From the IMG/VR virus record IMGVR_UViG_648276647_000020: a stretch of DNA of 30,723 nt. The stretch is one strand, 5' to 3'. The translations under genes were made by a program, and so were the position numbers. Positions 3,096 to 6,437 of this stretch are shown piece by piece. This DNA comes from a virus. Lineage: Duplodnaviria > Heunggongvirae > Uroviricota > Caudoviricetes. The notes under the pieces are model-generated. The model saw nothing but the letters and a program-made list of their open reading frames with translations. It was not told where the DNA came from and searched no databases. Positions within the stretch are counted from its first letter, which is position 1, and each line of letters opens with the position of its first letter.

Positions 3096-3323
3096 ATGAT
3101 GGCCCGAAATATAAAAATGGCAACGGATGCGCAGAACTGGTTACAGGCGCGCGGGAGTCATGTAAATGAATCATATCTCGGCGTGGCGCGTCCGATTCTT
3201 GAAATCACTTACCCACCGGTGGAACTGGTAAAAAACGCGGTCAGAATTATGGAGCATAAGTCCGGGGTGGCCCGTTCTGTATGGACGGCCCGTCTTAATG
3301 GTTGCCAGATTATCTGGAGATAA
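3096..3323 (+). CDS. small early protein of unknown function (at the position of Mu kil)
   Basis: 75 aa ORF with strong SD gaaggagaag 6-8 nt upstream. First gene after B; function inferred only from synteny. Confidence 0.55.
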
Positions 3324-3325
3324 CG

Positions 3326-3556
3326 ATGTGTATTAAAGCTGAAAAATATATTGAATGGGTTAAACACTGTCAGTGCCACGGGGTGCCGCTGACGACATAT
3401 AAATGCCCCGGATGTGGTGAACAGATTATGACGCAATGCTCACCCGAAAAGGAAATTCGGGATTCCCTGACATGTTGTCCGTGGTGCAGCGCAGTTTTCT
3501 TTAAACAGGTAAAAGGCGCGAAGGTAAAAGCCAGCGCGGTTATTCAGAATCAATAA
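3326..3556 (+). CDS. Cys-rich putative zinc-ribbon small protein
   Basis: 76 aa from ATG 3326 (SD ggaga 3315-3319); the ORF track's earlier start lies inside the previous gene. Motifs CQCHG, CPGCG, CCPWC. Confidence 0.55.
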   Translation: MCIKAEKYIEWVKHCQCHGVPLTTYKCPGCGEQIMTQCSPEKEIRDSLTCCPWCSAVFFKQVKGAKVKASAVIQNQ

Positions 3557-3567
3557 GGTGAAACAAA

Positions 3568-3831
3568 ATGGCAAAAGTAATTATTGAAATTAAAAATACA
3601 GTATCTGGAATTAAAGGACGGAATTTGCGCACCAGCATTGCGGTGGACGGTAGTGCGGAACTGGACGGTGATGAGGGTACACTTGCTGGCATGGTGGCGT
3701 TACTGGTGCTTAATAAAAGCCAGAAAATAATTAATGAGTCAGCCCATGAAGCTATTGAGATTTTGAAAAACGATGGTGTCATCACCGGTGTCCGTGTCAC
3801 TGAAATGGCTGTTGAAAAAACATGCCACTGA
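3568..3831 (+). CDS. hypothetical early protein
   Basis: 87 aa ORF, SD aaggtg upstream, AT-rich codon usage like neighbouring early ORFs. Confidence 0.55.
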   Translation: MAKVIIEIKNTVSGIKGRNLRTSIAVDGSAELDGDEGTLAGMVALLVLNKSQKIINESAHEAIEILKNDGVITGVRVTEMAVEKTCH

Positions 3832-3845
3832 AAGGAACGCTGACA

Positions 3846-4265
3846 ATGAACGTCAAAATCCGAAATGAAATTCAGGCATTAATCCGAATTCAGGAACGCA
3901 ATAACAACGGTGGTGAATTACGCGAGTTTATTTGCGCCCGGAAAGTTGATGGTTATGGTGAAAAGACTTACCTGATTACTTTCGACCATTACAGCATCTG
4001 TGCGCGTTATTGTGGCGAAAGCATATCCCGCGCCATTGCGTCTGGCGATGCGTTTAACGTGGATTTATGGGAGTACGTCATGGACCGTGAATACATCTGT
4101 GTATCAGACCCGAAAGCCCGTGAAATGTGGCAGCGTATCTGGCGCGATTACCGGTTAATGGCAAAAGGCTGGGCGCGCTGCTGTTATTCCTCGCTTGCCC
4201 TGAAAGCGGTTCAGTTATCGCTGCGGCATATTCCGGCATCACTGCGCGAGCCTCTGCTGTACTGA
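3846..4265 (+). CDS. hypothetical early protein (Cys-containing)
   Basis: 140 aa from internal ATG 3846 (MNVKIRNE...). Alternative start ATG 3822 overlaps the previous stop. No recognisable motif. Confidence 0.5.
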   Translation: MNVKIRNEIQALIRIQERNNNGGELREFICARKVDGYGEKTYLITFDHYSICARYCGESISRAIASGDAFNVDLWEYVMDREYICVSDPKAREMWQRIWRDYRLMAKGWARCCYSSLALKAVQLSLRHIPASLREPLLY

Positions 4266-5207: not shown

Positions 5208-5738
5208 ATGGTTGATGCAAAAATTCTGAATGGTGTCAGCACATTATTACGGGCTTTCGGACGCCTGACCTGCGGAGTTCTGGCTGAAAAAATGAATATG
5301 CTGCCCTCGTCAATGGTGTATTTCCTGCGTGATGCGGTTGATGCCGGAGTGCTCACCGAATGCAACGGATTTTATGACGTTCCGCGCCCGCGTCCGACGC
5401 CGCCTGTAAGACGAAACGCAACTGAGCAGCCTGCTGTTGATGATGCGGTGTGGTGCAACTGGCGTCGCTCATTACCCTGGGTGGAAGGTAATACCATCCC
5501 CGCGCTGGCAAAAGAGTTTGCGACGGGCGTGCTGACCTGTGAATCCGTTCACATCGTTGCAGAAGTGGACAACAGAATGTGCGAACAGGGTATGCCCCGT
5601 TTTGTGATGGCTTATATCGATATCCGGCTGGGGCGTTTTATTTGCAGTTCAAGCGCCTGGAATATCACCGACCATGTACTGCGTTATCTCATTCTTGATT
5701 GTTCTCCGGTTCCCGCAGCGGTGCAGGAGATGGCGTGA
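5208..5738 (+). CDS. hypothetical early protein, possible N-terminal winged-helix
   Basis: 176 aa, SD gagga upstream. Stop overlaps the next start (TGATG at 5736-5740). Confidence 0.55.
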   Translation: MVDAKILNGVSTLLRAFGRLTCGVLAEKMNMLPSSMVYFLRDAVDAGVLTECNGFYDVPRPRPTPPVRRNATEQPAVDDAVWCNWRRSLPWVEGNTIPALAKEFATGVLTCESVHIVAEVDNRMCEQGMPRFVMAYIDIRLGRFICSSSAWNITDHVLRYLILDCSPVPAAVQEMA

Positions 5739-6268
5739 TGTTTTTTAAAACGTCAAATCCCGCAGCACTGCTGGCATGGGACCAGTTTATGGCGGACTGC
5801 CTGAAACTACGCGAAGAAGCCCGCCATCTTGAGAAGGTTCTGGGCTGTGGTTGCCGGTCAGTATTCAGCACAGGTATTGGTGGGCGTCATTTTCATGGCG
5901 TGAATTTTCCGGGGAATGAGCGCCCCTTCTCGCGGGAGCTGTGGACCGTACAACGGCCCGCATCAGGTAACAGTTGCAGGCCCAGAACTTCGCGGATACC
6001 TGCTCATCTCAGGGAGCAGGCAAGAGAGCTGGCGAAAATATGGCAGGAGAATATTCCGGTCACTTACGCCCGCACAGACGCTCTTTTACCCGCACTGGGA
6101 CTGGATTTCAGCGCAACAATATTCGGGCCGCTCCAGTGGTTCCGTGTTGGTGATGTGATTTACGTCATGACGGGGATGACACCCGCACAAGGCCGCATGA
6201 CTGAAATCCTTTCTGACGAATTTATCCGGGCGCAAAAACAGGCGGAGGTAAACAATGGAAAACAATAA
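5738..6268 (+). CDS. hypothetical early protein
   Basis: 176 aa from ATG 5738, translationally coupled to the upstream ORF. A central low-complexity stretch and an overlapping alternative-frame ORF (5916-6158) leave open a frameshifted gene. Confidence 0.45.
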   Translation: MFFKTSNPAALLAWDQFMADCLKLREEARHLEKVLGCGCRSVFSTGIGGRHFHGVNFPGNERPFSRELWTVQRPASGNSCRPRTSRIPAHLREQARELAKIWQENIPVTYARTDALLPALGLDFSATIFGPLQWFRVGDVIYVMTGMTPAQGRMTEILSDEFIRAQKQAEVNNGKQ

Positions 6269-6437
6269 AACATCGTATTCGTGGCTGGGGAAATTCACCA
6301 CGGTGAAACAGGAATGCCCGACCTGCGGTAATGAATCCCCTGAATATCTGAAAGAGTGCCCTCATTGTGGCGGGCTGAAATGCAACCACTGCGATATGGG
6401 CGATGACACAGCGTGCATGAATTGTGAAGGTGAATAA
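6255..6437 (+). CDS. putative zinc-ribbon small protein
   Basis: 60 aa with four CxxC pairs (CPTC, CPHC, CNHC, CMNC). SD ggagg 6 nt upstream. Confidence 0.55.
   Translation: MENNKTSYSWLGKFTTVKQECPTCGNESPEYLKECPHCGGLKCNHCDMGDDTACMNCEGE

Follow-up and report, generated by a model that had tools for sequence, protein, structure and literature searches.

Gene 6 has been part of the sequence of bacteriophage Mu since the early 1990s. The semi-essential early region of Mu comprises 14 ORFs, few of which have an assigned function, and deletion of the entire region takes away the lethal early functions (PMC3325207). The genes A, B and kil lie on the long rightward early transcript of the phage (PMC3325207). 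In the Mu record (AF083977), the gene order is A, B, kil, gene 6, gp7, gp8, gp9 and gam, with an annotated ribosome-binding site for each. Gene 6 is entered there as Mu_6 (AAF01085.1), a 'hypothetical protein, previously called E5', and its RefSeq name is 'hypothetical protein'. In SfMu, ORF6 encodes a protein of unknown function that is 77% identical to the Mu counterpart (PMC4406740).

Mu gp6 also entered the screen of Silas et al. (bioRxiv 10.1101/2023.04.06.535777), in which wild E. coli strains expressing accessory genes were challenged with phages. In that work, the region beside Mu mom was picked as accessory ('Mup06-08 are good'), and gp6 became UDP0137 in a library of 200 genes, with the curator comment 'Zn finger'. 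UDP0137 is absent from the list of phenotype genes (toxicity, counter-defence) of the same study (10.1101/2023.04.06.535777). Its neighbor Mup07 (orf63, gp7, E6) is gnarl2, an O-antigen-modifying counter-defence gene, whose small accessory product changes the O-antigen banding pattern and makes wild E. coli sensitive to T5 (10.1101/2023.04.06.535777). Our literature search, recent papers included, found no paper assigning a function to gp6; the text matches to 'gp6' in a 2026 PNAS paper on Mu refer to T4 gp62. Gene 6 is thus already known: it is catalogued in a model phage, has Pfam and PHROG families of its own and was earlier labelled 'Zn finger'. It matters little as a discovery, and the useful outcomes of our analysis are modest. 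Mildly new are a core metal site delimited as C27/C30/C51/C54, apart from the allele-specific cysteines; the spread of the gp6 family far past Mu, to virulent and lambdoid-type phages and several proteobacterial classes; and the adjacency of a Kil-like gene and gp6 throughout very divergent transposable phages, which offers a testable hypothesis for an orphan gene.

We analysed a stretch of 30,723 nucleotides of viral DNA (IMG/VR record IMGVR_UViG_648276647_000020), referred to as the window. Between positions 2900 and 4700, the window is 98.7% identical to Mu (AF083977, NC_000929). Gene 6 occupies positions 3326-3556 (+) and encodes 76 residues plus a stop, and its product is 100% identical to Mu gp6 (NP_050610.1 / AAF01085.1; E5, Mup06) by tblastn. 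PHROG 3786, a family of unknown function, matches residues 1-76 at E=1.1e-40. All homologues, including one that is 99% identical, carry a precomputed match to PF26833, 'Phage_Mu_gp6'. On these profile and homologue matches, gp6 is a member of PF26833 and PHROG 3786. Mu gp6 is the founding member of both families, and the protein of the window is the same residue for residue.

The window also keeps the gene in the same slot as Mu, after A, B and kil and ahead of gp7, gp8, gp9 and gam. The preliminary description had placed it in a phage early region, which agrees with this position between kil and gam in the Mu semi-essential early region. In contrast to Mu, the window element carries a different transposase allele, so it is not Mu itself. 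This transposase (1-2103, +; 700 aa) is not canonical MuA. Its match to the A genes of Mu, D108 and SfMu is limited to the final ~91 nt (2013-2103), while bases 583-2103 are 94.8% identical to Yersinia phages vB_YpM_5/6 and 81% identical to Mu-like inserts in Stx phages. Its Pfam matches are HTH_Tnp_Mu_1, above the cut-off with a modest score, rve, which is sub-threshold, and Mu-transpos_C. The divergent A allele together with the Mu-like block from B to gam indicates that the window is a mosaic.

In the translation, gene 6 starts with the ATG at 3326 and stops with the TAA at 3554-3556. The preliminary description reported a 76-aa product with clustered cysteines, and the exact translation bears this out: the motifs CQCHG (aa 15-19), CPGCG (aa 27-31) and CCPWC (aa 50-54) are all present, and the nine cysteines lie at positions 2, 15, 17, 27, 30, 38, 50, 51 and 54. 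They make up 11.8% of gp6, against a cysteine content of 0.82% in the 22 large plus-strand ORFs of the window; relative to this usage, the binomial probability of at least 9 cysteines in 76 residues is 1.4e-8. Directly upstream lies kil (3096-3323, +), which is assigned by PHROG 2743 (E=2.8e-43) and by synteny. The kil stop codon (3321-3323) is separated from the gene 6 ATG by a gap of 2 nt, and a Shine-Dalgarno sequence GGAG (3316-3319, +), read directly from the sequence, lies within the end of kil, 6 nt before the ATG. In the Mu record, the equivalent site carries the ribosome_binding_site annotation for Mu_6. As the position of this signal inside the kil end implies, gene 6 is probably translationally coupled to kil.

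A word-indexed homologue search returned only seven close relatives. Among them, C27, C50, C51 and C54 are invariant, C30 has one exception, and C15 and C17 are variable. An exhaustive profile search over 1.84 billion representatives returned 198 clusters at E<=1e-3, mostly of 70-100 aa. We counted conservation in an alignment of 129 family members and checked the counts in a 110-sequence alignment. Only four cysteine columns are conserved, C27 (119/129), C30 (126/129), C51 (128/129) and C54 (129/129), and the prolines P28 (126/129) and P52 (121/129) are near-invariant. The core motif of the family in this alignment is CPxC-x20-CPxC, in agreement with the 110-sequence alignment. The two halves of the motif correspond to predicted zinc knuckle 1, C27-P28-G29-C30 (3404-3415, +), and predicted zinc knuckle 2, C51-P52-W53-C54 (3476-3487, +).

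The CQCHG motif (3368-3382, +) behaves differently from this core. C15 and C17 are allele-specific, and G19 alone is conserved in the family. Across the 129 homologues, position 15 is mostly L, A or V and position 17 mostly A, K or S; within the Mu group, position 15 is also V or A and position 17 also R, S or N. At positions 2, 15, 17, 38 and 50, cysteine is confined to the Mu group or to some of its members. We place CQCHG, C2, C38 and C50 outside the core metal site because they are unconserved beyond the Mu/D108 allele. Conservation among homologues had been proposed as one check on metal binding by the clustered cysteines. Such conservation holds for the four core columns, whereas the CQCHG cluster lacks it.

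Beyond the cysteines and prolines, the further conserved positions are Y8, W/Y11, G19, Y/F25, T36, E43, W45, D46, S/T47, the aromatics at 58 and 59, and K60. By column statistics, E43-x-W45-D46-S/T47 forms a polar and aromatic patch (3452-3466, +) at the start of strand β3. Position 45 is aromatic in 92% of the family and Trp in 94/129 members. Mu and the window carry Arg at this position. Codon 45 (3458-3460) reads CGG in Mu, in the window and in the Yersinia phage vB_YpM_3 group and encodes Trp in D108, and the change from Trp to Arg takes a single T-to-C substitution. R45 is found in phages with different transposase alleles, which rules out an artefact of laboratory Mu.

An AlphaFold2 (AF2) model of gp6, built from the 110-sequence alignment, has a mean pLDDT of 93.4 and a pTM of 0.78. 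It contains a helix at residues 3-17 and strands at residues 22-26, 33-37, 44-50, 57-63 and 66-71. The predicted N-terminal α-helix (3332-3376, +) bears the family-conserved aromatics Y8 and W11. Both CPxC knuckles sit at β-hairpin turns of the model, knuckle 1 at the turn between β1 (22-26) and β2 (33-37) and knuckle 2 at the turn between β3 (44-50) and β4 (57-63). The solved structures that match the model best are zinc ribbons, which may point to a structural likeness. Among the nearest known minimal zinc ribbons is the amino-group carrier protein LysW (PDB 3wwl, 3vpb); the sarcosine oxidase delta subunit, MasE and ZitP are other minimal zinc ribbons named as near gp6. The model supports a zinc-ribbon topology in which the site would presumably be occupied by zinc. 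What the preliminary description had offered as a possible zinc ribbon thus gains support from the conserved CPxC...CPxC motif and the predicted knuckles. Taking the identity of gp6 and the zinc-ribbon fold together, we consider the assignment highly likely to be right.

The same domain occurs in uncharacterised proteins of other phages, namely Chi-like gp72, KPP25 gp38, the phiR18 homologue, SS2019XI gp41 and Serratia phage homologues, at 28-40% identity. These homologues superimpose on gp6 with Foldseek TM scores of 0.83-0.87 and have the CPxC...CPxC site in common with it.

Known zinc-protein families resemble gp6 more weakly. A Pfam scan of gp6 with a local copy that lacks PF26833 gave only generic zinc-ribbon matches, all sub-threshold, and zf-dskA_traR and Ogr_Delta were both absent even at E<=1. 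We rejected a C4 zinc-finger transcription factor of the DksA/TraR or Ogr/Delta kind, as these profiles are absent and the model is mostly β rather than a helical coiled-coil-plus-finger. The NCBIfam matches, all sub-threshold, are to the FmdB, prophage ECs_2282 and YnfU putative zinc-binding families. Like gp6, the members of these families are small and have two CxxC pairs, and their HMMs resemble gp6 weakly over the ribbon (E 0.002-0.005). The scores of gp6, 17-18 bits, stay short of the curated cut-offs (31-37), which places it outside them. For FmdB / CxxC_CxxC_SSSS (TIGR02605), the score is 18.0 bits (E=0.0023) against a curated cut-off of 31.3 bits, and membership was rejected. The Lar/Ral restriction-alleviation zinc protein (TIGR03655) was likewise set aside: gp6 has no match, and a single homologue matches over 8 residues at E=0.013. 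Against the defence and anti-defence models of PADLOC-DB, gp6 and four homologues matched no family at E<=0.1. Sequence searches of the PDB with the 8- and 110-sequence profiles gave nothing significant; the top matches, artificial or C2H2 zinc-finger arrays aligned through CPxC repeats, were discarded.

We compared the window, D108, SfMu and two prophage copies pairwise by the Nei-Gojobori method. In these Mu-group pairs, dN/dS is 0.13-0.52 for gp6, 0-0.09 for kil and 0-0.20 for B. Gene 6 is under purifying selection, looser than that on kil or B. The preliminary description had named two observations that would count against its reading, cysteines that vary among homologues and an ORF without coding signal. 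With a reading frame under selection and conserved core cysteines, neither is what we found.

Divergence within gene 6 is concentrated in an internal segment, codons 14-49 (3365-3472, +), which differs between Mu/D108-type and SfMu-type alleles. Between the window and SfMu, dS is 0.89 and dN 0.34 in these codons, against 0.10 and 0.01 in the remainder of the gene. The Mu-type and SfMu-type proteins have 17 residue differences, 11 of which fall within aa 14-31 (Fisher p=3.6e-5). Local positive selection at residues 14-31 was considered and rejected, since dS climbs along with dN. The joint rise of dS and dN in codons 14-49 points instead to an exchanged allele segment.

The Mu-type kil-gp6-gp7 block is present in 46 of 5,426 complete E. 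coli genomes, and it is chromosomal every time. The slot of gp6 is unchanged, at ~30% identity, in Mu-like prophages from Citrobacter, E. coli and Phytobacter. These prophages have an S24-type repressor and DUF3164 in place of Gam, with the gene order repressor, ner, A, B, small ORF, gp6, 63-65-aa ORF and DUF3164. Seven IMG/VR transposable-phage contigs and one Martelella prophage have the same order. The ORF upstream of gp6 there matches Mu Kil (E 3e-4 to 1e-10) or is a phrog_2041-type counterpart. In all transposable-phage loci examined, down to ~30% gp6 identity, a Kil or Kil-like ORF precedes gp6.

We notice that the Kil family itself appears to reach proteins of 77-107 aa, phrog_2041 included, between B and gp6 in distantly related Mu-like prophages. 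Such Kil-like proteins are located at positions 5702-5992 of locus L005 and in loci L020-L022, L027, L033 and L050. They have a C-terminal motif of the form ...RPxIEI...NG...G(C)xI/V-I/V-W-R/S. Mu Kil matches phrog_2041 at E=0.089 only, and phmmer ties several of the Kil-like proteins to Mu Kil at 1e-10 to 3e-4.

Beyond transposable phages, the gp6 family extends to Chi-like phages (Chi gp72), to Pseudomonas KPP25, phiR18 and SS2019XI, and to Serratia phages. Unlike Mu, these Chi-like, Pseudomonas and Serratia phages are non-transposable and partly virulent, and they lack a Kil-like neighbor. A large group of lambdoid-type prophages carries a gp6 homologue after a Cro/CI-type HTH gene and adjoining a YdaT-like gene, and further homologues are found on viral contigs of 84-87 kb. 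The hosts of the family include Alpha-, Beta- and Gammaproteobacteria. Some homologues carry additional N-terminal regions that belong to PHROGs without an assigned function, and in one the fusion partner is a dATP/dGTP pyrophosphohydrolase domain; as clues to the function of gp6, these partners are uninformative.

Lacking a catalytic motif and too small for an enzyme, gp6 is taken to be non-enzymatic. Tentatively, we read it as a protein-binding module, a mechanism that is possible and that we hold with some reserve. Gene 6 is transcribed rightward within the long early transcript shared with A, B and kil, and gp6 is a single-domain protein, in which by prediction an N-terminal amphipathic helix packs on a C4 zinc ribbon. 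C27/C30 and C51/C54 would together hold one structural Zn(II). As a binding module, gp6 would most likely dock on a protein partner, and the docking surface may consist of the conserved non-structural residues E43, W45, D46, S/T47 and K60 together with the helix aromatics Y8 and W11. As its partner we envisage a host factor conserved in Proteobacteria or, perhaps, another product of the phage, and gp6 would serve to modulate the host early in infection, as a dispensable function. Several observations count against this proposal. UDP0137 is absent from the phenotype genes of Silas et al., and Mu itself has R45 in the proposed docking patch. W45 may also belong to the protein core instead of an interface.

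A further point against it is that nucleic-acid binding is very common among zinc ribbons; the preliminary description, too, had suggested for small zinc-ribbon proteins of phage early regions that they often bind nucleic acid or inhibit host proteins. As such a binder, gp6 might be an early regulator or a DNA or RNA accessory factor that acts, for example, on the Mu ends, on transposition intermediates or on a transcript. Mu gp6 is mildly basic (net +4, pI 8.6), gene 6 adjoins the transposition genes in transposable phages, and the ribbon has a sub-threshold likeness to FmdB-type and archaeal 'Zn-ribbon RNA-binding' proteins. However, all matches to nucleic-acid-binding families are under their curated cut-offs, and the charge of the family is inconsistent: members have a median net charge of +1, with acidic proteins making up 40% and basic ones 52%, and K60 is the sole well-conserved basic residue, the other conserved non-structural residues being acidic or aromatic. 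A family with no charge signature argues against a generic nucleic-acid binder and mildly favours the protein-binding module. Moreover, a transposition-specific role is unlikely because gp6 occurs in many non-transposable phages. We therefore regard nucleic-acid binding by gp6 as rather unlikely. The metal chemistry of the Mu/D108 allele could also be richer than that of the family, as this allele has five cysteines and two histidines beyond the core four, and H14, C15, C17 and H18 might build a second metal or redox site with C2, C38 or C50. Such a site is extremely doubtful, since residues of the H14/C15/C17/H18 type are unconserved even inside the Mu group, the SfMu-type allele is maintained with none of them, and in the AF2 model they would lie on a helix, where i and i+2 face different ways.

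The surroundings of gene 6 suggest other roles. An accessory protein for counter-defence or superinfection, narrow in spectrum and with a target missing from the strains and phages tested, would fit an accessory-gene hotspot in which the neighbor gp7 is gnarl2 and has unrelated alleles. It would also fit the exchanged internal segment of gp6, the Lar-like restriction-alleviation domain encoded by a neighbor gene in Pseudomonas phage SS2019XI, and the choice of gp6 as an accessory gene by Silas et al. (10.1101/2023.04.06.535777). On the other hand, gp6 is not in their phenotype list and matches no PADLOC or anti-defence family, and both its dN/dS below 1 and its strict position in transposable phages that diverge widely are less usual for fast-turnover anti-defence genes; we hold this role to be unlikely. 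Quite unlikely, too, is that gp6 serves as a Kil partner in a coupled kil-gp6 cassette, with the ribbon modulating, chaperoning or counteracting Kil or sharing its host target. The Kil-like ORF directly upstream in every transposable locus examined, the C-terminal signature common to Kil-like proteins, and the gp6 ribosome-binding site within the kil end with its short stop-start gap all speak for such a cassette. Against it, gp6 has no Kil-like neighbor in Chi-like, KPP25-like and lambdoid-type phages, and within the Mu group the two genes have separate recombination histories, with a dS between the window and SfMu of 0.10 for kil and 0.41 for gp6. As the entire early operon is syntenic, their adjacency may reflect common descent only. 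In its more specific form, in which kil and gene 6 are a conserved coupled two-gene module of transposable phages and the ribbon controls or cooperates with Kil, we find the idea very improbable. Within such a module, gp6 might limit Kil toxicity until replication proceeds, or bring Kil to its target. If true, it would give a 40-year-old orphan gene of Mu its first function and provide a handle on the mechanism of Kil.

Downstream of gene 6, the window holds gp7 (E6/Mup07) at 3568-3831 (+). In the Mu group, gp7 has a Mu/SfMu-type and a D108-type allele, which are unrelated, with dN near 1 between them. For gp8, the longest ORF runs from the ATG at 3822 (3822-4265, +; 147 aa) and overlaps the gp7 end. 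A 139-aa product starting at 3846 is favoured by the annotation of Mu and by PHROG 3690, which matches from residue 9 onward. Meanwhile, a second small Cys-rich early ORF is found at 6255-6437 (+). It encodes 60 aa with 8 cysteines in the CxxC pairs CPTC, CPHC, CNHC and CMNC, and in Pfam it resembles only the DnaJ CxxCxGxG and rubredoxin-like zinc-ribbon families, weakly in both cases.
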